64,000 bases of DNA from a virus. The stretch is taken from IMG/VR virus record IMGVR_UViG_3300025011_000038, positions 5,949 through 69,948 of that record. The stretch is one strand, 5' to 3'. The translations under genes and the position numbers were made by a program. The notes beneath the pieces are model-generated. The model was not told the origin of the DNA and did no database searches. It saw nothing but the letters and a program-made list of their open reading frames with translations. Positions 18-55,840 of this stretch are shown one piece after another (position 1 is the first letter of the stretch; each line of letters begins with the position of its first letter).

Positions 18-1636
18 TCACCCCACCCCCTCAATAATCTCCACTATTCTCTCTAGTTGTTCTTTGCTGAGAGAATGTAGATTAAATTCCCTTAACCTAT
101 TTATTGCTTTATGTCGGTCTATTTCATCTAAAACATTCTGAGTGATTGGACGTATTGTAAATGAGCAACCCCAAGCATTAGAAGATTTATGGTAACCTTC
201 CTTATCTGTCGATAAGCCACTCTCTAAGCGCACAATGCCGGTAGGAGTCATTTTTTTAACTTTATCAATAGTGTATACTGTGTCCCTACGTCTAATATAA
301 CAAACCTTATCGCCCGGTTTAAGAGACTTTAGCCAATCGACGTATTCTATATGACTCACCCCTCAATAATCTTATGTCGCTTCTTCTTCGGATATAGAAG
401 AACACATATATTCCACGGAAGGATATACTTCCATTTCTTTTTTGCACTTAGGACATTCTATTATTCTTTTGTCTAAATCATCGTTAATTGCCCTTCTCCC
501 GTTGAATTCATGGCCACAGTAGGGACAAATACAAGTGTCAACACTGATGGTTTCATCGGTCGGATATGTGACCTCATCTTTTGGTTGTTCCTCAATAATA
601 GCCTTAATCTGCCGGAGTTGTTGGAGAGTAATTTTATTGTAATGTGGACTGGAAATAATTTTTTCTATATTTATAGCAGTAGAACTATATTCCTGCTCGT
701 CATAATAATTTTGTGCGGATAGATAAATTTTAAATGAAGTAGCATCTAAACATGCGAGATTATTGATCTTAACCTTATACTGCCTAGAATTAGGCGACAT
801 GCTTATATAGAAATAAGTCCTACCTACTTTTACTATTTCATATTCTCGCAGTTCCCTACCTCCATAATAATCCTTAACATAAACCTTCTGCCCAACTTCC
901 ATGCTAGTCACCTCCTACAAATGAAATAAACAGTAAATAATTACAACTGCACCAATAACACCAAACAGTGAACCGATGTATTGTATTATATCGTTGTCTT
1001 GCGTGTTAATCACCTGCCACATCATGTAAATATAAAGTATCATTTTCTTTACAATAACCACAAACGCAACCCCATGGTTTTGAAGTTAATTCTACTTCTA
1101 CTGTTTTATATTTAGGGAATTTCGTTATATCATTGTTTAGTGATATAGATGGTAATATATAAACAGCAATATTCCAAAGTCCTTGTTTTACAATATGATA
1201 TTTAACCCTACTCACCTTCCTCCAACTTCTAACACCCATCAAACTCAGGCAGTGCTTTAAATTCTTCTTCTGTCATTGCAACCGCTTCCACAGTAAAGAA
1301 GTCGTTAAATAGATGTGTCTTATCCCCAATCTGTAAAGATTTTAATGCTGTTTCAGTTAACTCTTTGGCGACTGAATCAAGGCAAAATTCGTCTATTTCT
1401 TTTCTTTCTTTATCAGGCATTTCTTCTAAAGTAACCATAATATCTTCTACGGCATCCTCTGGTTTATCGTGCATAACCCAGGAACCATATTCTATATTTG
1501 AAACTTTATAGCATTTTATGAGATTAGGTTTACAGGAAAGACAACATACTTTTACTATCCCATCTTCCCCTATCTTTATTTGACATTCTGTATCTATTAA
1601 TATTTCTTTATTACAAACTATGCAACAATTAGACAT
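18..1636 (-). CDS. Run of small hypothetical phage proteins (18..359, 372..911 with C-terminal CxxC Zn-ribbon, 1006..1242, 1229..1636)
   Basis: Co-oriented ORFs with GGAGG/GAGGGG-type RBSs; no recognisable family. Confidence 0.75.
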
Positions 1637-3867: not shown

Positions 3868-4146
3868 TAAGTCTAACCCGAAAAAACGTGCAATCTTGGA
3901 AATAGCCGACCAAACAACTCCGATAACCATAGCAATAGCGGTAAATATTGTAATAATTTTAACCATACCGGCCACTTGACCATAGCCCAGTGCGGAAGTA
4001 ATGTATTGCATAATCCAGCTAAAAGTACATAAAACCATTAACTGCACTATCGGCATACCTATTCCCTTTAAGGTTTCTGCCGCCACTCCTGCATGACATA
4101 GAGAGGGGAATAAGAGTAACCCAATTATTGCCGCTAAATATTTCAT
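3865..4146 (-). CDS. Small membrane protein, SpoIIIAC/SpoIIIAD-like
   Basis: Signal-like N-terminus and two hydrophobic helices separated by ALGYGQVA, ending ISKIARFF, similar to SpoIIIAC architecture. Confidence 0.5.
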   Translation of the reverse strand: MKYLAAIIGLLLFPSLCHAGVAAETLKGIGMPIVQLMVLCTFSWIMQYITSALGYGQVAGMVKIITIFTAIAMVIGVVWSAISKIARFFGLDL

Positions 4147-4814
4147 CCTAACACCTCCCGGCGAATATTGCCCACAAGATAACTTTCGAACTCTAACCCG
4201 TTTTTATTTTCCGTCCTAACTAACTCGTTAATCTTTTTAAGTTTGCGCTCGTTGTCGGTGATTAACAGAGTTTTTGGAAATCTCTTGGTCTGCTTCACCC
4301 ACCACTGATCCGGCAGTTTGTCGAATAGCTTATTGTATTTTTTTACCTTATCAAACTCGTTGGCCGGATGGTGAATATCCATTTCGATAAACAGGAAACG
4401 AAATTGGCCTGTGATAGTGTTTTTGATAGCAATAAAGCAATCTGTAAGTAGTATTTTCATGTCGTAATTATAATTAACGGAGTGAATTTCCTCCCATGAT
4501 TTTAAGTTTCGTTCTATCCAAATTACTGCCCAATTCAATAATACAGTGTGTTGCATTTGCTCTAGTCGCTCCCGGTAATAGGCGTATGGTTGCTCTAGGT
4601 CGTACCGCCAGCGTTGTAGGCGTTTTTGGTCAGTTAACCGTTTGAGGCGTTGTTGGCATTTGCGCTTGCCGGATGCCGTGAGAGGGAATAGTAGTACCTG
4701 CACCTGTTCGGCATTGAGGCATCTGTGGGTGTGTATGCGCTCTAGTATTCTTTCATCGCGGCAATAACCTAACCGGCGGTTCGACATTTGACCAACTAGT
4801 GAAAGCATCGACAT
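4143..4814 (-). CDS. Replication-relaxation (Replic_Relax-like) protein
   Basis: N-terminal wHTH (RDERILERI...LNAEQVQVLLF...QQRLKRL), QHTVLLN motif, C-terminal D...FIEMD...KVKKY nuclease-like motif; coupled to FtsK gene. True start may be near 4794. Confidence 0.8.
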   Translation of the reverse strand: MSMLSLVGQMSNRRLGYCRDERILERIHTHRCLNAEQVQVLLFPLTASGKRKCQQRLKRLTDQKRLQRWRYDLEQPYAYYRERLEQMQHTVLLNWAVIWIERNLKSWEEIHSVNYNYDMKILLTDCFIAIKNTITGQFRFLFIEMDIHHPANEFDKVKKYNKLFDKLPDQWWVKQTKRFPKTLLITDNERKLKKINELVRTENKNGLEFESYLVGNIRREVLG

Positions 4815-5883
4815 TAACCCCTTTCAATAACTTTTTGGCCTGATTTACTGGAAGGTGCATCGTTTGGACTTCCCGGGTATCCATGCCGAATCTGTAAATT
4901 GCCCGACCTTTTACTCCCGGGAGATATGCGGCAAGGGAACAAGTTTCACCTAAAACCATACGGCTATTAAGTTCATCGGCAACCTGGAAACATAGTCTGC
5001 TTTGAAACATTGCCCTGGTATCTCCCGGGAGAACCTTTGTTGATGGTCTTTGTGTCGCCGCAACCACTGAAATACCAACCGCCCGGGCAAGTCTGGTTAT
5101 CCTGTCGATAAGTTTAATCGTTTTAGTGCAGGATATTTCCGCTAATTCATCTATTACAACAACGATAAAAGGTAACGGTTCCTTCGCCCTCTTATTGTAG
5201 TCCTGAATTTTAACCACTTTTGCCCTCTCTAGCGTCTTAATACGCTGTTCCATGCCCTTCTCAATGGCTTGCATCAGCAATAGTGCTTCTTCCTCCGTCC
5301 TTGCTAATGCCGCATAATCTTTCAAATAGGCAAATTCTAACCTTTTTAGGTCTATAATGCCGATTCGTGCTACTGGTAATAGGGAAGTAATAAGAACGTG
5401 CAGGAAGTTAGATTTTCCATACCCAGGAACACCTGCAATAAGTAGATGCGGAGATTCTTCAAGCGGTAGCACCTCCAGTCCCTGCTTACTAATTCCGACA
5501 GGTATTGGCAAGTCTATGTTACCGTCATAATTCCAGTTATAAGGTAGCTTATTTGGTATCTCGTTTGTATTGATGTTAATGTGTAGAAATTTGCCGTGTT
5601 TCTCCATTTCTACATTTAGCCCGGTAGCATCTTCGAAGTATTCCTGCTGATTTTTTAGAGTGTTGAATGACGTACCCGGGCGAAGTGTGAATATCATGTG
5701 CCATCCTGTTTCGGTGCGCTTGATACCTTTGCGGATCGGTAGTGGTCGGGGTTTGTCGAGGGGATAGAGAGTTTCTAGGGTATCTAGGATGGCGGCAGGT
5801 ATTTCGTATCCTCTGCGGTGTCTATAGGCATCTTTTAGGGCATTTATCGCCTCACCTAGCATGTTGATTTTTTGTTGCTTCAT
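4753..5883 (-). CDS. FtsK/SpoIIIE-family DNA translocase / coupling ATPase
   Basis: PHLLIAGVPGYGKS (Walker A), IDLK, VVVIDELAE (Walker B), RLARAVGI, ATQRP. Confidence 0.95.
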   Translation of the reverse strand: MKQQKINMLGEAINALKDAYRHRRGYEIPAAILDTLETLYPLDKPRPLPIRKGIKRTETGWHMIFTLRPGTSFNTLKNQQEYFEDATGLNVEMEKHGKFLHININTNEIPNKLPYNWNYDGNIDLPIPVGISKQGLEVLPLEESPHLLIAGVPGYGKSNFLHVLITSLLPVARIGIIDLKRLEFAYLKDYAALARTEEEALLLMQAIEKGMEQRIKTLERAKVVKIQDYNKRAKEPLPFIVVVIDELAEISCTKTIKLIDRITRLARAVGISVVAATQRPSTKVLPGDTRAMFQSRLCFQVADELNSRMVLGETCSLAAYLPGVKGRAIYRFGMDTREVQTMHLPVNQAKKLLKGVNVDAFTSWSNVEPPVRLLPR

Positions 5884-5955: not shown

Positions 5956-5982
5956 AAAAAAATAAACCGCCCGGAGGCGGCT
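5956..5982 (-). terminator. Intrinsic terminator ending the early operon before the FtsK cassette
   Basis: AGCCGCC-TCCG-GGCGGTT followed by TATTTTTTT on minus strand. Confidence 0.85.
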
Positions 5983-6014: not shown

Positions 6015-9000
6015 TTAAATAATTTTTGAGATAATTTCTTTAACGGATTTTTGTATTTCGTAAAGTCTATCGCGTTCTGACTCAATGAGTTTAATGAGCG
6101 ACAATTCATCATCTAGCGACATATTATATTTCTTAGCCATTGAACTAATGTTGCGCTTTAATTCCAGTAGGTTGTTGATTTGTTTTTGCTCTCCATAAGC
6201 AAACCATTCTTGATCTCCAATTTTATTGAACGCGTGAATTTCTCCATTGTCATCAATGATTTGGAAAACCAAATTATCCTCAGAAATAATATCATAATGC
6301 CTGTCCTCGGTACAAAATCTTTCTCCGTTTGGTATGTTATAATAACCGTCCTTAATGCACAGTATTCGCTTATTCATACTATCGTCCTCCCTCTCTTTAA
6401 TTCCCCTACTCCCACCCATATACGGCATGGGCAGGATAAGGAAACTAGCGGAAACCTTTCTTTGTTTTTGGACTGAATTTCTTGCAAGCAAACTGATTAG
6501 AGCTAACCCTGTTTTTGCTTATGCGACAGTTCTTAACTGTCATAGGCGCATAGTGATTGCAGTCACGACACACCTCGTTCATCGGCATATTACCAATTGA
6601 CTTATTTTTATAACCCCCGAACATACCCCAACTATCAGAACGAAAATACATTATACTATCACCTCAATCCATTCTGTCATCTTCCACTGTGTCGCCGCAA
6701 GTGTCATGGCATCTAGGGGCGATGATGCCCATATGGTGTCCTTGCTGCAACCGGCAGGTATGGTCGTTTTGCCGATTGTTAGTTCAGGGAAATGGAGTTT
6801 TAAGCGGTATTTGTTTAACTCAGGTATAAAAGTACCTCTGGCTGTTTCTTGGCGTTGTATGGCCTTTAGGATGCGGTTTGCGGTTGATGTGGTCATTGTG
6901 GTTGTCCTCCTATGCAATTCTAATATCCTCGTTAAATACTGTCTTGTCGCCGCTATCAATGCGATCTCTAATCTCGCATACCTTGTCGGCAATCTTTTGA
7001 GCGTTTACTTTGGTTATATCACCCTCAAAAATAAGCCAATTTCTCCACCCTCTTATGGTTGCCGTAAATCTTCTGATTTTGTCATTGTCGATGTTGTAAC
7101 TTTCGGTTATTGTAGTCCCAGCAATCCAAAAATGCCTAGCTATAATTTTCCATTTTTTCATGTGGTTGCCCTCCCTCTAATATAATCCTTCGGCATCCCC
7201 TGACACGGCAGGAGATAACGAAAAACTATTTAAAATCCTCCATAACTGCATCGACATATAATTTAGTTTGTATTTCCTCCTTCTCCCAATCCTGCACCTT
7301 TAATGCCGTATTGGTTGCTGCTGTTTCGATGCACTCGTCGCGCCTTCCGTATGGTATTGGACCGCTACAAAAACCTCCATAATGTTGCTCTCCTGTACGT
7401 TGTGCCTCGTTTGGTCGTTTGCATCCTAAGTAAATTGCCCTCTTGCGTGTAATCTTTTCTGCGTTGGGACAATGCTTTTTGATAGCATCGGCAATTTGCT
7501 GATTCTCGGCAACAAAAACGGTGTACTCGTTACTAAAGTTTCTCGGATAAACTACAAAATATTGGTTCATTATTCCTCCCTCTGGCCTCGGTATTTCGTT
7601 TTGCGCCCCAACTTTGGAGACCGGCGCGTATTTTTAATTTTACCAAAACGCCCTCTTGTGGTGCTTTGGTAAAACTGCGGTTTATGGATTACCGCGAACC
7701 GTATAACTTTTCAATCGTTAAACCCTTACTAATAAGGTGCTTTGCTACATCAATACAGAAATTGGGTGCGCAAACATCAGCGAATACGCGATCCAATTCG
7801 TTTTCGGTAAAATTCTTGATGCCGTGTTCTATCATTTTGGCTTTTACCGCTTCGGCGTGGTGAGCGTAATAGGTTTTTGGTGTTTCGTCAATGGTTAGTA
7901 GGTCTAATAATTCCCTTCTGTTCATACTATAACCCCCTTATTAGTCTTAACTCAGCCATCCTGCCAGATAACTCAGGTAAAACTGGGGTTTGGAACCTGC
8001 TACATATAAATTTCCGCTAAATAATCATTCTTGATAAAATTTCTTACCCACCTACCCGATCTCCGTATCCTGTTGTTTTCGCCATTATAAGTGTATGCAA
8101 TATCGAAAATATCATCTTTTACGTTGGTTATCCTTTTACCGCTTAAATATATCGCTTTGCCTTCTCTTAGTAATTTCATTGCTTTTCTGATATTCCTATC
8201 AATCTTTACCATCTTATCATCCTCCCTCTTAGTTTTACCTAAACCCTCCCCCGAAAGGACTTAGGTAAAACTGCGACTTTAGGTAGTCGCTAGTTTTTCT
8301 AGCCATTTGCGCTCGGCGTAGTTTTCCGATGCGTAATATTCAGGTTCTGTATTCTCGCCCCATACTACAAAATAGGGACCACGAAAACCTAAGTAAATTT
8401 CGTTTTGTTTCTTTAAGACTTGTACCTCTTCTGGATTAAATTTAGATACATTGTATATACTTCCTAGCATCTTATCGACCTCCCTCTAATGTCTCAACAA
8501 AATACCCTCTCGAAGGTACTTTGGCGAAACAGGGGTTAATTAACCCCATACTGCCTTGTTGTACTCAGGCGTATTGGAAATAATTTCGGCGGCCAATCTA
8601 TGCTCTAGTTTTACAAAATCCTGATATAGTTTAGATTTAACCACATCGCCCTCGCTGCATTGATATACAAAACATTGTACGGATTTATAAACCTGCATTA
8701 AATTTCTAGGTGATTCGTAGCTATGTCGGTATAACTCAACCGGGTTGTTTTCGTTGTAACGCTGATCTACTGCTTTATTATTCATGTTAAGCATCTTTTG
8801 ACCTAGTTTGTTGCAGTCGCCAAGGAAATTGCGGTATATTTCTGGGTACTGTCCTTCTGTGCTGTAAAGCGGTTTACTGTCGATATAACTTACAATACGG
8901 TCAATAGTTTTCTTTTCTACAACGTAAGCGCTCATTTATAAATTCCTCCCTAGTTATTTAAGAAATCTAATTGCTCTCTGGTTAAATATTTGGTACATTC

Positions 9001-11728
9001 CGACCTTACAATTCCATGCTCTTTCATTACTTCAGTAAATTCTTCTTCCGCACAAACTGCCCATGACCAAAATCTCGGCGGTGTATTTGCGCTACCCTTG
9101 CAGATTATAATTTTCATTAGAATAGCCCCCTCATTTAGTCTTAACTCAGCCATCCTGCCGGATAACTCAGGTAAAACTGGGGTTTATGGTTAACCCCTAA
9201 CCTTTATATAGTTATGACCCCAGGTTGATTTGTCCGTAACGTCAACAGTCTTATGATAGTATTTACCTGTACTTCTGTCGTGCAAGTATTGTGAAGTGTA
9301 ATATCCTGTTAGCATTTCAGACATGCAGAACATTTCGACATTATCTATGGTAGTCCATTTTATCGGCGGTAATATGGTTAGCATTTCTTCAAATCTTTCC
9401 GAGGTTATTTCTGTTAATGGTTGGTTAATATAGCAATCTCTTTCCATTTGCAGGTATTCGTTAAAAGTCATAATCTTATATTTTTTATTTTGTGCTTGGC
9501 TTAAATAAGTTTTGAATTGCTCGGTGTCAGGATAATTCTTACAATGATTTGCCCAGGTTTCAATATCTTTTTCGTTGCTTTCAATGGCTCTTACTAATAC
9601 TTCTTCCGCTTGTTCCTGACTGTTGGCAAAATTAAATATACCAATTCCTACGGTGTCAACTATACATAATTCATTTTTCATCTTATCGCCCTCCATGTTA
9701 TAATATTGGTGAATATATTTTTACCTGCTCCCCGGTTTTACTGCTCGCAGCAGCTACCGGGGAGTTTTAATTTTTAGCAGGCATATTTTCCTAGTACAGT
9801 TTCAGTTATATTTTCCTTCCAGTTTTCATTGTTTGTTATTGACCAGTGTTTATTGTATCCGTTGAAATGCCGCAACAAGTGAAGCATTTCCGGGTTATCT
9901 TGGTCAACCCACAAAGAGAGGTTAGGGTATTGTTTGCCTTCGCTTTTTTCTAACTCGTAAAAATGCGCTTTAATTTCTTCTGCGCGTGCGGTGAGTTCTG
10001 CGTTAAACTTAAATTTATCTCCGAAGTTGTGACCGCCACCATCTTTGAAAACTCTATAACCGGCCAGATCTGGAAGTATAACAACCTCGTCAAAACTGCA
10101 TCCCAGTGAGTTTACAATATTAAGTATTTCGGCTTTGTTATACTCAAATGTTTGCCTCATGTCTTTTATGCTGTGTTTGTTACAATCGTCGTCGCCCTTA
10201 ATATAATGGCAATGGTCAACGAATCCGGCATATGCAAACTGCTTAATGCTTTTCGAGCTGCTTTTCGTTATAATGCGGCAATTCTCAACCATTCCGCGCG
10301 GTACACTTCCGGCACCTTCAAAATATAAAGTTTTCATTGTTATATCCTCCCTTAATTTTAGTTTAGATTTTAACTCCACACCCGGCAGGATGCAGAGGTA
10401 AAACCTAACCGGAGTTAGGCAATATAGATTCTCTTGCCGTAAAAATTAAAATAGATTCCTTGTTTGCTTTGGTATGTTTGTAATCCGTATAACCTGTCGA
10501 AGTTGAAATATATCTTATTTTCGTTTATCGTTCCTTCTGTTTCAACCTCTTTATGACTGTTATCATCAAACAGGAGAAACGTAACTCTCTGTACTACTGT
10601 TAATTCCTGTGTTCCTCTGTATGCTCGTTCTTCTGTTTCGATGCTCAGTTTTAGCTTTTCGGCAACTTCGCCATATGTACCTTTATACTTGTAGGTATTC
10701 CCTGTTGCGCTATAACTAACATGTACGCCGCCAGATGCTTTCTTGATGCTGCCGTTAGGGTTTTTAGTTAGGAACGCCTTTTCTAGTTCGGCAAACTTGG
10801 TTATTTGTTTCATGCTATCTTCCTCCTAGTTTAAGTTTTACCTCAAAGTCGCGCTCTCAGGTAAAACCTAAACCTTAACCCCTTTTCTGCACCTCTAGTC
10901 GCGTTCGCTTCGGGTCCAGTGTTCGCTTGCCTTGGCTGGCCCTTTCGGATATGCCAACTTCGCCGGTTCGCGCTGTGGGGTTTCTGTATTCTGTTGGTCG
11001 GTTGTTGCTGTCGGTGCGCTGGCTGTCATCATCAGAGCAGGTAGCCAATCCTGCTGACCGCCGAAGCGGTTTCGACTTATATTTTTTCTTTCATCGGTAC
11101 TAAGACTGCGCCGTTTTCCAGGTCGGGGTGGTAATCGTGCCAACTTTCGGTTACTTTGTAATATTTGCCGTCCATCGTGACCACGTTCTGACCTCTGTGT
11201 AGTACTGGGATGTTCATTTCGTCTGTTACGTTCTCAAAAGGACGTTTGCGGCCTTCTTGTGGGTTCCAGTTTACCCGAACATCGTTACCTGCTGCTCTTT
11301 CAAATCTATTTCTTGCCATTTGCGCGTCCCCCTCGTATTTAGTTTTACTTACCACCTCTCCCCGGAGGGAGAACGCTTCGGGCTTAAGGTTGTTTATACT
11401 CACCCGAATGAGTTTAGTATCTTCCGCCCTCAATTATGAGTTCCAGGGTGTCCTGCTTCATGTTGCGCTTTAGTGTCGCCTTGCTTCTGTTGTCCTTTAC
11501 CTCCTCCTTCCAGTCAATTCCCATTCTGCGGAAGTAAAGTGTTACCTCTCTTATATCGCCTGCCAGCAAGTCCTTCCATGAGTAGTCGAAGAAAACAAGT
11601 AAGTCGGTGCAGTAACAGTCACACTGCTTTACTGCTTCGCGCATCAACGCTTCTTTAATTGGTTGCGTGTTTTGCTCTTCCCCGTGAGAATTGCAAACCT
11701 GACTTTCGATAATGTGTACTTTCGGCAT
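6015..11728 (-). CDS. Early/host-takeover-like operon of small hypothetical genes (6015..~6377, 6445..6651, 6910..7161, 7226..7570, 7689..7925, 8000..8212, 8279..8470, 8540..8935, 8950..9117, 9190..9681, 9774..10337, 10415..10813, 11077..11433, 11414..11728)
   Basis: All leftward, most with strong GGAGG RBS; several starts corrected to the RBS-supported ATG. Confidence 0.8.
7636..10873 (-). repeat. Dispersed family of ~42-nt imperfect intergenic hairpins (AGTTTTACC...GGTAAAACT-like)
   Basis: Copies at 7636-7676, 7943-7984, 8231-8272, 8490-8531, 9137-9178, 10361-10409, 10829-10873. Confidence 0.9.
9190..9681 (-). CDS. DUF1419-like protein
   Basis: EITSERFEEMLTILPP...FCMSEMLTG motif. Confidence 0.55.
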   Translation of the reverse strand: MKNELCIVDTVGIGIFNFANSQEQAEEVLVRAIESNEKDIETWANHCKNYPDTEQFKTYLSQAQNKKYKIMTFNEYLQMERDCYINQPLTEITSERFEEMLTILPPIKWTTIDNVEMFCMSEMLTGYYTSQYLHDRSTGKYYHKTVDVTDKSTWGHNYIKVRG

Positions 11729-11780
11729 GTTATCCGCTCCTTCGTATTTAGTTTTTCGTGTTGCCGTTTTCCATGTGCTT

Positions 11781-11810
11781 ATTATATTCTATGGGTATCC
11801 ATATCGTCTA
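11781..11810 (-). promoter_or_regulatory. Early-operon promoter with operator in spacer
   Basis: TAGACG-18-TATAAT on minus; near-palindrome ATGGGTATCCAT at 11791-11802. Confidence 0.55.
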
Positions 11811-11858
11811 GCCTGATTTAGTCTGATATTCAGCCATTTATGGGCATCCACATTAGCT

Positions 11859-12062
11859 TTACTCTTGGATATTAGCTGTATCTGCCTTTTTCAGCGTTTT
11901 TTGAAATTCTGCAATTTCTTTTTCAATAGCTTTTCTGGCTATGTCTGATGCCGTTAAGCCAGTAGATACGGCAATTTCAGCTAGTTTTGCCTTTTCTCCT
12001 AGCGGTAATCTGAGATTGAAACTTTCCCAGTTATCGCGGTATTTTTCTTTTTTCTTTTTCAT
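11859..12062 (-). CDS. Ribbon-helix-helix repressor
   Basis: SFNLRLPLGEKAKLAEIAVSTGLTASDIARKAIEKEI RHH pattern. Confidence 0.8.
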   Translation of the reverse strand: MKKKKEKYRDNWESFNLRLPLGEKAKLAEIAVSTGLTASDIARKAIEKEIAEFQKTLKKADTANIQE

Positions 12063-12250
12063 TCGTTCGTCACCTCCGATAAGTATAGTATATCATATGG
12101 GTATCCACTATGGCAACCCAGAGGGAAGGGTAATGTTTTCCGCATATATGTTTGCAAAATGTTTCCGTTGACAGTCTATATTTATTGTGATTTCGCTAGA
12201 AACGATATATAATTTATATAGATTTCGCTGAGAATATTGGAGGCGTAAAA

Positions 12251-17871: not shown

Positions 17872-20595
17872 ATGGCAAAACTAACTGCAAAAGAAAAAGA
17901 AGCGTTACGATTTATTAATGAATTAGAACGGCGGCAGAAGGAAGAACATATTCGCTTTATTAGACCTTACGACAAGCAGGAAAAGTTTCTATTATCCAAT
18001 AAAAGGAATAGCTGGATACTTGGTGGGAATCGCACAGGAAAAACGGAATCTGGCGCAATTAGGGCGGTATTCCTTGCTTTAGGTGAGAGAATACGCCCTT
18101 ATCTTATAGATTGGCCGGATGATTTAAGGGAGAAATATGAACCTCTAATAACCCGTTTTGGCGGTAAACCTACTCGCGGTTGGATATGTTCCGTATCCTT
18201 TGAGGTACAAAGGGACGTTACTCAGAAGAAAATATTAGGTGACGTTGAAACCGGAATACCTGGATTGTTACCGTTAAGAGAGATTAAGAAAATAACCTAC
18301 CGCAGTACAGGTATTATAGATACCATACGACTTGTCGGTGGTGGTATTATTGGATTTAAGTCCTATGACCAAGGCAGAGAGAAGTTTCAGGGTTCATCTC
18401 AACATTGGTGTATTGCAGAAGATCAACGTGTATTTATGGCTGACGGAACATATAAACCCATACAAGATGTATGTCCCGGAGATATGGTTGTAACTAAAAA
18501 TGGTTGCGGTAAAATGGTAACCAGAAAAGTAGTTGCTAAGCATGACATGGGAGAAAAACCTGTATTTGATGTTGTTACTGGTAAATCTCCTTGGATACAA
18601 CTTACAGAAGATCACGAAGTATATGTTTCTTCTAAGAAAAAGAAAAAAGTTGTTGATGCTGACAGAATATACTTGTCTGATATGAATTTTCAGCCTAGTA
18701 CAACCGAGAATATGCCGGAAGGCTTTTATCCTTGGTTGGGACTTGTGCTTAGCGAAGGTACCACATCTGAAAAGAAAATAACTATTGGCAGTGAGGAAAT
18801 AGTTGCTGCCGCCAAAGAGTATTTACCTAGCGGTGTATATTTGCGGAAAACTGAGTTTAAAGCCTGCAATCATGTTCCAGATTGGCATATCAATAATTGG
18901 CCTGAGTTCTGGAAGGTAGTACCTGCCGGACTTGCCTATGAGAAATATGTACCAGATTGGGTTTTCCGTTCAGACAAAGAGCATATTGCTCTTTTTTTGC
19001 GTTATCTATTTGCCGGTGATGGTTGGGCAAGCGGTCATACAATTGGCTATGCTTCTACTTCTCGCAGACTGGCAGAAGATGTATGCTTATTATTAAGGCG
19101 CTTAGGTGTACGCTCAAGTTTTACTAAAAAGAAGAGTCAAAAGGTTGGGGTTTGGCGCGACCAATGGTGGGTTATGGTTTGCTCTGCCGACCATGTAGTT
19201 AGGTTTTCCGACAGTATTGGAATAGAGGGTAAGCAAGAAGCAGTTAATGCTGTTGTTTGCGAAGCTAAAAGACGTATAGAGAGTAAAATAAATAATACTG
19301 GTTTCTTAATTCCAAGATGTAAAAACGAAGAAGATAGTTTTAAATGGAAAAAACAAAATAGCAGAGCAAAAGAAACATACGCACGAATTAAAAAACTTAT
19401 TCCCTTGGGAAATAAGAGAACCTATGACCTATCTATAGAAAAGGATCATAGGTTTTTTGTTGGTACTTGCATGGTTTCAAATTGCTGGATGGATGAAGAA
19501 GGACCCAAAGATATCTACACAGAAATAATGATGCGTCTTATGGATACCGAGGGTGACTTATTTGGAACAATGACACCGCTTCAAGGTATGACGTGGGTGT
19601 ATAATGATATTTACCTTAACGACTCAAAACCCATTGAGAAGCGTGACGATGAAATATTCCTGATAATGGTTGAATGGAACGATAACCCTTACTTATCAGC
19701 AAGTGAAAAGAAACGTCTTGAAGCGTCTATGGATGAAGCGGAGTTAGAAGCGCGGAAATATGGGCGTTTTATTATGCCCGGCAAATGTTCCTTTAATATC
19801 GGCAGAATAGCGGAGATGCAGAAGAAATGCTATCCCGGCGAGCGAGGCAACCTTATATGGACAAGTCCTGCAAAGGTACAAGTCTATTGGCAACCAGAAG
19901 AAAAGGGCGAATATGAGGTATGGTTCCATCCTGAGAAGGGCGCAGAGTATTTAGTACCTGCTGACGTTGCAGAAGGTTTAGAGCATGGCGACTTTGATGC
20001 TGTGGGAGTTATTAACCGGCACAGGTTAAGGTTAGATGCTGTATATCATGGACACGTTGAACCGGACGTACTTGCCGATTATATGCGCCGATTAGGGTTT
20101 TACTACGGCATACCGATGTTAATACCTGAAGGCAATAACCACGGATTAACTACGATAAGTCACTTGAAAAAGGATTATTATGATATATATAGAACTCAGG
20201 TTTACGATAAGCGCAGCGACCAAACAAGACAAAAGTTAGGTTGGTATACAACTCCTAAGACTCGTCCGTTAATCGTTGATGCTATTAAAAAGGTTGTGCG
20301 TGAAGGAGTATTCGAGTGCTATTGGAAACGCTTTGTTGATGAAGCAATGAATTTTGTCCGACACCCAAACGGAAAAGAGGCGGCAAGGGGTGGACAGCAT
20401 GACGATGTTATTCTAATGTGCGCTATCGGGGTACATGTTCATATGACTACTGCCTTTAAGAATAACAATAGTATTCCCTTCCTCCCCGGTCAAGATAAGG
20501 GAAGAAGGTTAAACGCTCAGTCAATGGAACAATGGGCAGAGGACGAGGACGATGATGAATATGAAGAAGGATTACCGGGATTTTACGGAATGTAG
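17872..20595 (+). CDS. terL: Terminase large subunit, intein-containing
   Basis: GGNRTGKT Walker A, KSYDQGREKFQG, WMDEE Walker B, TMTP coupling motif, DVAEG and HDD nuclease motifs. Confidence 0.95.
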   Translation: MAKLTAKEKEALRFINELERRQKEEHIRFIRPYDKQEKFLLSNKRNSWILGGNRTGKTESGAIRAVFLALGERIRPYLIDWPDDLREKYEPLITRFGGKPTRGWICSVSFEVQRDVTQKKILGDVETGIPGLLPLREIKKITYRSTGIIDTIRLVGGGIIGFKSYDQGREKFQGSSQHWCIAEDQRVFMADGTYKPIQDVCPGDMVVTKNGCGKMVTRKVVAKHDMGEKPVFDVVTGKSPWIQLTEDHEVYVSSKKKKKVVDADRIYLSDMNFQPSTTENMPEGFYPWLGLVLSEGTTSEKKITIGSEEIVAAAKEYLPSGVYLRKTEFKACNHVPDWHINNWPEFWKVVPAGLAYEKYVPDWVFRSDKEHIALFLRYLFAGDGWASGHTIGYASTSRRLAEDVCLLLRRLGVRSSFTKKKSQKVGVWRDQWWVMVCSADHVVRFSDSIGIEGKQEAVNAVVCEAKRRIESKINNTGFLIPRCKNEEDSFKWKKQNSRAKETYARIKKLIPLGNKRTYDLSIEKDHRFFVGTCMVSNCWMDEEGPKDIYTEIMMRLMDTEGDLFGTMTPLQGMTWVYNDIYLNDSKPIEKRDDEIFLIMVEWNDNPYLSASEKKRLEASMDEAELEARKYGRFIMPGKCSFNIGRIAEMQKKCYPGERGNLIWTSPAKVQVYWQPEEKGEYEVWFHPEKGAEYLVPADVAEGLEHGDFDAVGVINRHRLRLDAVYHGHVEPDVLADYMRRLGFYYGIPMLIPEGNNHGLTTISHLKKDYYDIYRTQVYDKRSDQTRQKLGWYTTPKTRPLIVDAIKKVVREGVFECYWKRFVDEAMNFVRHPNGKEAARGGQHDDVILMCAIGVHVHMTTAFKNNNSIPFLPGQDKGRRLNAQSMEQWAEDEDDDEYEEGLPGFYGM
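18409..19482 (+). mobile_element. Intein with LAGLIDADG homing endonuclease (358 aa)
   Basis: Starts CIAEDQRV, block B LTEDH, LGLVLSEG and LRYLFAGDG motifs, block F TYDLSIE, ends VSN followed by Cys+1. Confidence 0.92.
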
Positions 20596-44364: not shown

Positions 44365-44768
44365 AAAGCAAAACTCCCCCAAGTGGAACTCAGGAGAGTT
44401 TTGACTGAATGATCTGAATAATACATTAGTCCGTTATTTTATCAGGGCCAAAGCCACGGCAAGATCATTCTTTCCGACACAAAACCATGGATTAAAGCCA
44501 TGTTGCAGTAATGTCGGTTAAGCAGACTCCAAGAAGAAGGAACCCACACCTATTTAGGGTGCTGCTATCTTTCAGATAACCTTCTTTAAACCTTGCGCTA
44601 GCCTGCTTAATATGCGCTTCTTGGATTATTTAATAAGCGGACAGGGATTTGCACCCTGCATGATTATACCCAGCCAAGAGTATCTAAAAGACCTCTCGTG
44701 ATAATCTTACCTCGTAAGCGTCTACATATTCCGCCACCGCTTATTGCATAGTTCAATTAGTTCCCGCT
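44365..44768 (-). ncRNA. Putative ~400-nt structured RNA with tRNA-like 5' domain and pseudoknotted 3' domain
   Basis: Promoter TTGATA-17-TATAAT (44803..44775); multiple long-range pairings; terminal hairpin 44369-44403. Confidence 0.65.
44632..44745 (-). tRNA. tRNA-Leu-like element (atypical, probably non-decoding)
   Basis: AATAAGCGG/CCGCTTATT acceptor-like stem, TGGCGGAATATGTAGACGC D-arm, CAGGG-TGCAAAT-CCCTG T-arm; collapsed anticodon arm, very long variable arm, no CCA. Confidence 0.6.
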
Positions 44769-55519: not shown

Positions 55520-55840
55520 TCAATCCTCCATTTTTATAATCTCCGCAACAGTCGCCAGAAACTGACTTGTCATAGGTTTGGTTATGATGTTATTAGGAAA
55601 TATATCGCAATACCTGACGGTCCCGTTTTCCTGCGTTTTGTGAATTGTGTGACGGATTGACCTTTCAACACGTTTTCCGGTTGTGCTGTGCTGCTCTGCC
55701 ACCTTTTCGTACAACTCACACCAACGTACGGAGTTCGGAATTTTGGTTAACTCCAAAATAGCTGTTCTTGCGTACTTGAATCCGTCCATTTGTGGGGGTA
55801 CTCCTATGTCAAGTAGGAGTTTTGTTGTTCTGTTTTTCAT
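55520..55840 (-). CDS. Stand-alone Spo0A C-terminal DNA-binding domain protein
   Basis: LLDIGVPPQMDGFKY.RTAI...LYEKVAEQHSTTGKRVERSIRHTI...KPMTSQFLATVAE. Confidence 0.9.
   Translation of the reverse strand: MKNRTTKLLLDIGVPPQMDGFKYARTAILELTKIPNSVRWCELYEKVAEQHSTTGKRVERSIRHTIHKTQENGTVRYCDIFPNNIITKPMTSQFLATVAEIIKMED

Follow-up and report, generated by a model that had tools for sequence, protein, structure and literature searches.

Conserved hairpins and self-cleaving ribozymes at the junctions of a phage small-gene operon: a possible system of intercistronic RNA processing

What purpose is served by a family of related hairpins that recurs between the small genes of a single phage operon? The question is raised by a minus-strand block of small genes in IMGVR_UViG_3300025011_000038, a 69,948-base IMG/VR record graded complete, of which positions 5949-69948 (64,000 nucleotides, nt) make up the stretch analysed here and termed the window. 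An earlier note made from the letters of this stretch had listed seven related and two unrelated hairpins in the block and had read them as RNA processing or stabilisation sites or, alternatively, as the single-strand recombination sites of an integron-like cassette array. All nine hairpins were recovered in place. Coordinates below are those of the window unless another record is named, and the hairpins, ribozymes and genes of the block all lie on the minus strand.

The seven related hairpins are designated, from the higher coordinates downwards, Ha (10829..10873), Hb (10361..10419), Hc (9137..9197), Hd (8490..8547), He (8231..8290), Hc' (7943..7984) and Hf (7636..7695), where the intervals of Hb, Hc, Hd, He and Hf also take in a small hairpin at the stop codon of the preceding gene (9179-9197 in Hc, 8273-8290 in He and 7677-7695 in Hf). 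Hc, Hd, He and Hf are defined by their fold and by a covariance model; Ha is 89% identical to its orthologue in L005, a related phage with a complete genome of 72 kb, Hb is 94% identical in the same genome, and Hc' is a copy of Hc at 98% over 51 nt. Hf is the member found most widely, in six of the seven related records. Three further hairpins of the block are unrelated to the family, namely hpX with a conserved leader (9728..9764; -26.0 kcal/mol; 97% identical over 73 nt in L005), hpY (7189..7222; -20.4 kcal/mol; conserved in L005, L174, L178 and L196) and a further strong hairpin, hpZ (6398..6447; -27 kcal/mol), ahead of the last small gene.

Folding of the sense (minus) strand RNA gave the seven family members minimum free energies of -17.3 to -24.5 kcal/mol and z-scores of -3.2 to -5.8; none of 200 shuffles matched six of them, and 2 of 200 matched the member at 7943. 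On the plus strand, four of the seven (7943, 8490, 9137 and 10361) lost the hairpin or dropped to chance, with z between +0.12 and -1.5. It can be deciphered from this loss that the apparent mismatches of the arms are G-U pairs of the transcript, as the earlier note had claimed for the transcribed strand only. The stems comprise 18-20 base pairs (bp) with G-U pairs and 0-2 mismatches, and consist of a conserved base, GUUUUACC/GGUAAAAC, with a variable interior and loop; the positions UUU..CC of the 5' arm are invariant across the family.

The same note had proposed that a covariance model be built and related phages be searched with it, and covariation is indeed present. A MAFFT alignment of 11 copies (the seven of the window and four from the nearest relative) is described by one 18-bp helix in which 89.8% of cells are paired and 10 of the 18 pairs are changed on both sides. 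Its covariation score is 0.49 against 0.23 in shuffles, none of 500 of which reached it, and alignments slid out of register as controls were only 29-57% paired. The model-fitted alignment of 18 hits from five records (17 distinct rows, one of them the antisense hit of a near-perfect palindrome) is 91.1% paired, with compensatory changes at 11 of the 18 pairs.

The family is also sharply localized. The window holds 11 copies of the arm motif GTTTTACC where 3.0 would be expected, a count reached in none of 100 shuffles, and eight of these copies fall within 7668-10867. An arm-gap-arm pattern allowing up to two mismatches matched six of the seven family hairpins (all except 8490-8531) and nothing else in the 69,948-base genome, the reversed pattern used as a control giving no match; the covariance model returned precisely the seven sense-strand sites in the whole genome. 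Both in the window phage and in L005, the two complete genomes, the family is confined to this operon; in the window, 7 of about 16 junctions carry one of its hairpins and a few junctions, such as 8936-8949, are plain. No Rfam family matched the hairpins at E up to 5. Mimicry of CRISPR repeats was considered as well and none was seen, the Rfam search having covered the CRISPR-repeat families. No description of the family was found in a literature search whose coverage left outside the motif lists of Weinberg et al. 2015 and Roth et al. 2014. The hairpins can with good confidence be regarded as functional structures of the sense-strand RNA.

Their placement is equally regular. As the earlier note had it, the hairpins lie between a stop codon and the next ribosome-binding site and lack a U-tract, which both the sequence and the 3' tails bear out. 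The distance from stop codon to stem is 6-15 nt in the six members with a secure call of the upstream open reading frame (ORF), and that from stem to ATG is 17-28 nt in six of the seven and 65 nt at 7636; the start codon of the next gene follows a strong GGAGG or GGGGG site. The first part of the module is the small hairpin of 5-6 bp, which holds the stop codon of the upstream gene in its 5' arm or loop and adjoins the main hairpin in most modules, Ha being without it. The letters of its stem vary (GCGGU/ACCGC, GGGGU/ACCCC, GCGACU/AGUCGC, GGGAC/GUCCC and others), and in two relatives unrelated genes share identical last codons, which the small hairpin provides. The 3' tails of all seven hairpins are A-rich leaders. 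The shared leader recognised in the earlier note (GGAGG..GATAAG-ATG) is found at 8470, 8212 and 9681, with a variant ahead of 6380.

A consensus scan found no convincing promoter between hairpin and ATG. One promoter-like match of 9/12 positions (8497-8469) overlaps the arm of the 8490 hairpin and the leader, and its start would fall inside the ORF; matches of the 9/12 type numbered 31 against 20.0 (standard deviation 4.1) in shuffles and were treated as not above chance. At the head of the block the consensus scan gave a promoter-like site at 12087..12116 (TTGCCA-18-TATACT with TG, 10/12 matches) and a second one at 11781-11810, and at its end a canonical intrinsic terminator with a GC stem and T-run (5965-5982). 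Since promoter-like sites stand at the head and one terminator at the end, the small-gene block would form a single early polycistronic mRNA of about 6 kb, running from about 12.1 kb to 5965-5982. The hairpins themselves were rejected as intrinsic terminators, their A-rich tails contrasting with the T-run of the operon terminator.

Two gaps of the same kind are occupied by self-cleaving ribozymes. A pistol ribozyme (11350..11413), which matches Rfam RF02679 over model positions 1-68 of 68 at 50.5 bits where the gathering score is 34.5, begins directly past the stop codon of g104, an ORF of 104 amino acids (11414..11728), and leaves about 30 nt to the start codon of the gene behind it. It retains the core elements AUAAA, UUA.GC, AGCGU and GGU as well as the G-U of the cleavage site, and the six-base loop of its P1-loop pseudoknot is complementary in the window, the same pairing being formed by different letters in L182; the relatives L182 and L196 score 57.4 and 60.6 bits. 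The gene that follows, g80 (80 amino acids, 11077..11319), has a ribozyme on either side, as a type II hammerhead (11017..11077; Rfam RF02276, borderline at 37.4 bits against a gathering score of 37) starts at the last base of its stop codon. The hammerhead core CUGAUGA, GAAA and GUC is intact, with G at position 7 in L005 and L182, and the cut is predicted after GUC, near 11056/11055. The pseudoknot from loop I to the 3' tail is present, and its pairing is altered on both sides in L182. Orthologues score 41.4 bits in L174, 37.8 in L182, 44.8 in L201 and 36.5 in L005, whereas L196 and L214 hold an exact 21-nt segment of the hammerhead and are not listed at the gathering score.

The list of elements in the earlier note was sound for the nine hairpins and had overlooked the pistol and the hammerhead in equivalent gaps. 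As both ribozymes have intact cores and covarying tertiary pairings, the operon is very probably cut by RNA catalysis at two junctions at least.

Several side observations concern these ribozymes. Three-way-junction RNAs with hammerhead-like cores (CUGA..G. and GAA) occur at 4778-4859 of L005 and 6125-6179 of L201, and that of L005 fills the gap which contains the pistol in L182, in L196 and in the window, the same AAACUAAAUA leader following it. They were not accepted as hammerheads, Rfam being silent (E up to 10 and up to 1, respectively) and the core positions non-canonical. In L214, an unrelated phage contig, a pistol, the hammerhead segment and a twister-P5 lie at three successive gene junctions (6682-7526), and all three elements end just before a Shine-Dalgarno site. 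In 37 IMG/VR viral contigs, most of which have no other relation to this phage, the hammerhead stem contains one identical segment of 21 bases with a UUCG tetraloop, a finding that points to a wide horizontal spread of this hammerhead variant. The interval of about 140 nt between the hammerhead and Ha (10874-11016) is kept in L174, L196 and L201 at 75-81% identity, and may encode a peptide of about 45 amino acids starting at an AUG within the hammerhead core or may be another RNA element.

How are the junctions and the genes between them inherited? Relatives were found through the FtsK-like protein encoded beyond the operon terminator, through exact module motifs and through the 21-base hammerhead segment. 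The hairpin family occurs in six further records, with four sense-strand model hits in L005, 1-2 in L174, 2 in L175/L178, 3-4 in L182, 5 in L196 and 2 in L201. It was not found in 33 other contigs with the hammerhead segment, nor in the distant FtsK-like relatives (L006-L016), and is therefore limited to a small clade. Wider scans agree in yielding little. An exact scan of 185,579 species genomes, one per prokaryote species, with a 20-base pattern gave three chance matches and no model hit; the arm-gap-arm scan of IMG/VR gave 38 loci, nearly all chance palindromes, with only weak covariance model scores of 23-29 bits among the 20 searched; a 14-base pattern gave at least 118 loci, of which, among the matches listed, L088 alone is real; and the 20-base pattern gave 11 stretches in metagenomes, five of them chance matches without a hairpin.

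Across the records the order of the RNA elements is constant (pistol, hammerhead, Ha, Hb, (hpX), Hc, Hd, He, Hf, hpY), although individual records may lack some of them and the hpY type stands at two positions relative to the gene of 81 amino acids. The modules of the window match those of L005 at 85-97% identity, against 70-82% for the few shared genes, the FtsK-like gene included at 81%. Most ORFs between the modules have no counterpart, and L182 has only three array proteins in common with any other record. The modules are thus more conserved than the genes, and related phages possess a collinear scaffold with different ORFs.

The ends of the blocks of DNA similarity lie no more than a few bases from start and stop codons. 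The clearest instance is g104, whose homologue in L196 shares 77% of its amino acids and whose DNA homology runs exactly from ATG to TAA. In L196 the homologue occupies a slot between Ha and Hb, while in the window g104 is situated upstream of the pistol; past its stop codon, the pistol follows in the window, and a small hairpin and Hb follow in L196. A ribozyme and a family hairpin accordingly occupy the same gap after the same gene. Since the borders of g104 are ORF-precise, exchange would have taken place at ORF edges rather than by crossing-over inside the hairpins. The earlier note had asked whether gene content changes exactly at the hairpins. This held in so far as ORFs differ between conserved modules; it did not hold for the hairpin-free junction between g55 (8950-9117) and g131 (8540-8935), which is a breakpoint as well, the homologues of both genes in L005 being present in reversed order. 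The genes are swappable units between conserved spacers, and their ORF-precise swapping is real.

On these grounds, namely the sense-only folding, the compensatory changes, the fixed placement from stop codon to Shine-Dalgarno site, the ribozymes in equivalent gaps and the interchange at g104, we favour at a rough probability of 0.55 a role of the hairpins in intercistronic RNA processing or end protection. The hairpins would punctuate the early polycistronic mRNA and serve as the protein-dependent counterpart of the ribozymes. Each would be cut by a double-strand-specific endonuclease of the host (RNase III), or would block exonucleases, or both, and the long transcript would be converted into gene-sized pieces, each separately stabilised and translated. 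The corresponding proposal of the earlier note is upheld, though indirectly, by fold strand, covariation, placement and the accompanying ribozymes, while its RNase III cleavage stays at the level of a prediction.

The choice of RNase III as the specific enzyme can be put forward only tentatively. Passages on the RNase III of Bacillus subtilis (PMC4838370, PMC11780869) describe its substrates as stable, slightly bulged stem-loops whose duplexes measure 10-36 bp and contain U-G wobbles, and SP82 early RNA is named in a passage of the former as a non-native target of the enzyme (PMC4838370). The present stems of 18-20 bp, at -17 to -24.5 kcal/mol, lie within the 10-36 bp span of those sites.

A number of observations weigh against the processing reading. 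The phage has no RNase III gene, for which reason the enzyme is assumed to be that of the host. A purely structural role leaves the invariant 5' arm (UUU..CC) unexplained, and the other three hairpins of the operon are unrelated in sequence. The catalytic side of the comparison has a narrow margin at the hammerhead, which lies only 0.4 bits over the gathering score in the window and 0.5 bits under it in L005. Swapping is not tied to the hairpins, as the plain g55/g131 junction indicates, and the homology of g104 stops at the ORF borders and not within the modules. The related idea that the hairpins act as insulators that free the Shine-Dalgarno site was tried and rejected, because a crude in-silico test gave no effect on accessibility (unpaired probability from Shine-Dalgarno site to AUG of 0.50 in the native sequence, 0.52 with the hairpin deleted and 0.46 when shuffled).

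A bolder extension of the processing reading would treat the operon as a fixed scaffold of interchangeable "cutters" (pistol, hammerhead, twister and the GUUUUACC/GGUAAAAC module). The module would then be a sequence-specific processing site, served by a nuclease of phage or host other than generic RNase III or by new RNA catalysis, and ORFs would drop in from start to stop as in a recombinase-free cassette system; we regard this as unlikely. Somewhat lower still do we place the explanation that the conserved hairpin base is bound or cut not by general RNase III but by a sequence-specific factor of its own, an RNA-binding protein or endonuclease from phage or host, which would regulate the translation or stability of early genes. 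It would account for the invariant positions of the 5' arm and for modules that are better conserved between genomes than genes, and the phage does encode candidates, namely a protein with a ProQ C-terminal-like domain and a zinc ribbon (372-911, minus strand), a possible RNA-binding partner of structured early RNAs, and an HD-domain protein. Three unrelated hairpins and two ribozymes nevertheless fill the same kind of gap, so that one sequence-specific partner cannot serve the whole operon.

Equally low is the chance that the hairpins are repeated DNA linkers devoid of RNA function, that is, homology patches or a small selfish palindromic repeat kept by gene-shuffling recombination. Modules of the same type do occur in different gene contexts and in a preserved order while the ORFs differ, Hc has been duplicated within the window, and a precedent is at hand in the T4-type PeSL cassettes, for which Arbiol et al. 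2010 (PMC2839356) describe recombination at repeated regulatory motifs. Such linkers would have no need of the sense-strand specificity conferred by G-U pairs or of compensatory changes that preserve pairing; moreover, every copy has the same orientation and keeps a set distance from stop codon and Shine-Dalgarno site, ribozymes occupy the same gap, and the homology of the moved gene g104 ends at ORF borders.

A transcriptional pause or weak terminator, composed of the small GC-rich hairpin at the stop codon and the U-rich 5' arm AGUUUUACC and giving graded expression, is improbable. The consensus scan does classify two small hairpins, together with the AGTTTTACCT behind them, as terminator-like, but the stems measure 5-6 bp with loops of 4-10 nt and only four U after them, terminator-like sites number 8 against 8.0 in shuffles, and Ha has no small hairpin at all. 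The long hairpin that is conserved and covarying forms only after the passage of the polymerase and has no U-tract, which argues against a terminating or pausing role.

The integron-like alternative of the earlier note, widened to REP-like sites of single-stranded DNA that a dedicated enzyme would recombine or transpose, is disfavoured as highly improbable. There is a resemblance: an imperfect palindrome comes after each of the mostly promoterless small ORFs, folding on one strand and having conserved outer arms and a variable centre, ORFs change position or identity, and g104 was relocated with ORF precision. A six-frame search of the complete genome, however, gave no match to tyrosine recombinases (PF00589; controls 14/14) or to Y1 transposases (PF01797; controls positive), and no recombinase was encountered among all 26 ORFs of at least 200 amino acids that were scanned. 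Integron attC sites span 57-141 nt and carry R''/L''..L'/R' boxes; the arm GTTTTAC of the present family departs from their GTTRRRY core. The present sites, at 33-42 nt, have half the minimal attC length and no attC core, their G-U pairing speaks for RNA rather than DNA structure, and all copies share one operon and one orientation, with no model hit among the species genomes scanned above. In contrast to REP/RAYT systems, there is neither a Y1 (IS200/IS605-like) transposase nor a dispersal of copies in both orientations.

That the two-hairpin module is a new class of self-cleaving ribozyme is just as implausible, for although it sits in the gap used by pistol, hammerhead and twister and has no Rfam match, it has no conserved unpaired nucleotides, the loops of both hairpins vary freely and no conserved pseudoknot was noticed on reading the sequences by eye.

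Which known systems does the operon resemble? RNase III sites are established features of the T7 early transcript, and those of T7, SP82 and SPO1 have in common with the present family related intercistronic stem-loops, small mismatches, G-U pairs and the lack of a U-tract; here, by contrast, ribozymes lie in the same operon, genes are swapped among relatives and cleavage is only predicted. Synthetic intercistronic insulators, such as the RiboJ parts made of ribozyme plus hairpin and the Csy4 or RNase III sites set between cistrons, likewise place cutting or folding elements directly before each ribosome-binding site and uncouple the expression of cistrons, but they are an engineering concept and not a natural family, and the accessibility test detected no insulating effect here.

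A close precedent in nature is provided by clustered ribozymes of phages and prophages. Passages of Perreault et al. 2011 (PMC3088659) report several hammerheads flanking single prophage genes of varying identity and propose the processing of long transcripts, and pistol ribozymes are recorded near phage genes (Harris et al. 2015, PMC4604425); the role of bacterial and phage self-cleaving ribozymes was still called largely elusive in a 2019 review (PMC6765202). Small varied genes, each flanked by structured RNA within one transcription unit, are shared with the operon described here, in which a pistol and a type II hammerhead are placed in this way. It differs in that most of its occupied junctions hold a non-catalytic-looking hairpin family and in that an interchange of ribozyme and hairpin after one gene is directly seen. 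The T4-type PeSL cassettes, as described by Arbiol et al. 2010 (PMC2839356), are similar in their repeated regulatory motifs between ORFan genes, their plastic early regions and the differing gene content of close relatives at the motifs. The PeSLs, however, combine a strong sigma-70 promoter with a working terminator, while the present hairpins leave 17-28 nt to the ATG, with no convincing promoter and no U-tract, and lie inside one predicted transcription unit.

The remaining genes of the array offer few clues from homology. Its first gene (11859..12062, 67 amino acids) encodes a protein that resembles ribbon-helix-helix proteins such as CopG or the RelB antitoxin, through weak matches below the curated cut-offs, and is the exception among the 15 array ORFs searched, as the other 14 gave no informative match in Pfam, PHROG or NCBIfam (one DUF1419 and one PHROG of unknown function). 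In descending order there follow, besides the genes already named, g132 (10415..10813), g187 (9774..10337), for which a protein atlas search returned nothing, g163 (9190..9681), with a DUF1419-like C-terminal part, g63 (8279..8470), g70 (8000..8212), g78 (7689..7925), with a homologue in L174, g114 (7226..7570), g83 (6910-7161), the gene of 81 amino acids, g81 (6651-6896), which is present in every relative reaching that far, and a last small ORF of 121 amino acids (6015..6380). A blastn search of 6500-12100 against 50,697 phage records gave no match to a cultured phage.

Beyond the terminator lie the gene of the short FtsK/SpoIIIE-like ATPase (4753-5883, minus strand) and one of a replication-relaxation family protein (4143-4814, minus strand), a pair kept in all relatives recovered through it. 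The window also holds the genes of a tailed phage, with a P22-like portal, an SU10-type adaptor, an amidase with an SLH domain and a terminase large subunit of 907 amino acids (17872-20595, plus strand) that is split by an intein with a Hint module and a LAGLIDADG homing-endonuclease domain; a thymidylate synthase and a primase-helicase are encoded as well. The region after the lysis genes contains, at 44516-44607 on the minus strand, a full-length DUF3800-VII RNA motif that scores 68.7 bits (Rfam RF02967; gathering score 36.2) and belongs to a class not known to have a function. The phage further carries a protein like the C-terminal, DNA-binding domain of Spo0A (55520-55840, minus strand; E 8e-19), which suggests a spore-forming Firmicute host and interference with the sporulation control of that host.

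Overall, structured RNA between the early genes of phages, ribozymes included, is known in outline (Perreault 2011; the T7 and SP82 sites), whereas the hairpin family without an Rfam match, the direct alternation of ribozyme and hairpin behind a single gene, and an RNA scaffold that stays collinear while its cargo is exchanged with ORF precision are new. The operon offers a natural comparison in which one gene is followed, in the equivalent gap, by a ribozyme in one phage and by an ordinary conserved hairpin in another. Such an interchange speaks for a generic job, the cutting or capping of the message between genes, and it makes the transcript-processing proposal of 2011 directly testable. 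It also presents a mode of phage genome plasticity in which non-coding spacers, and not genes, are the conserved backbone, and the ORFs that are exchanged become candidates for early functions in host takeover or counter-defence. If it is true, the scaffold of interchangeable cutters would be an RNA-defined, recombinase-free way of trying out new early genes.

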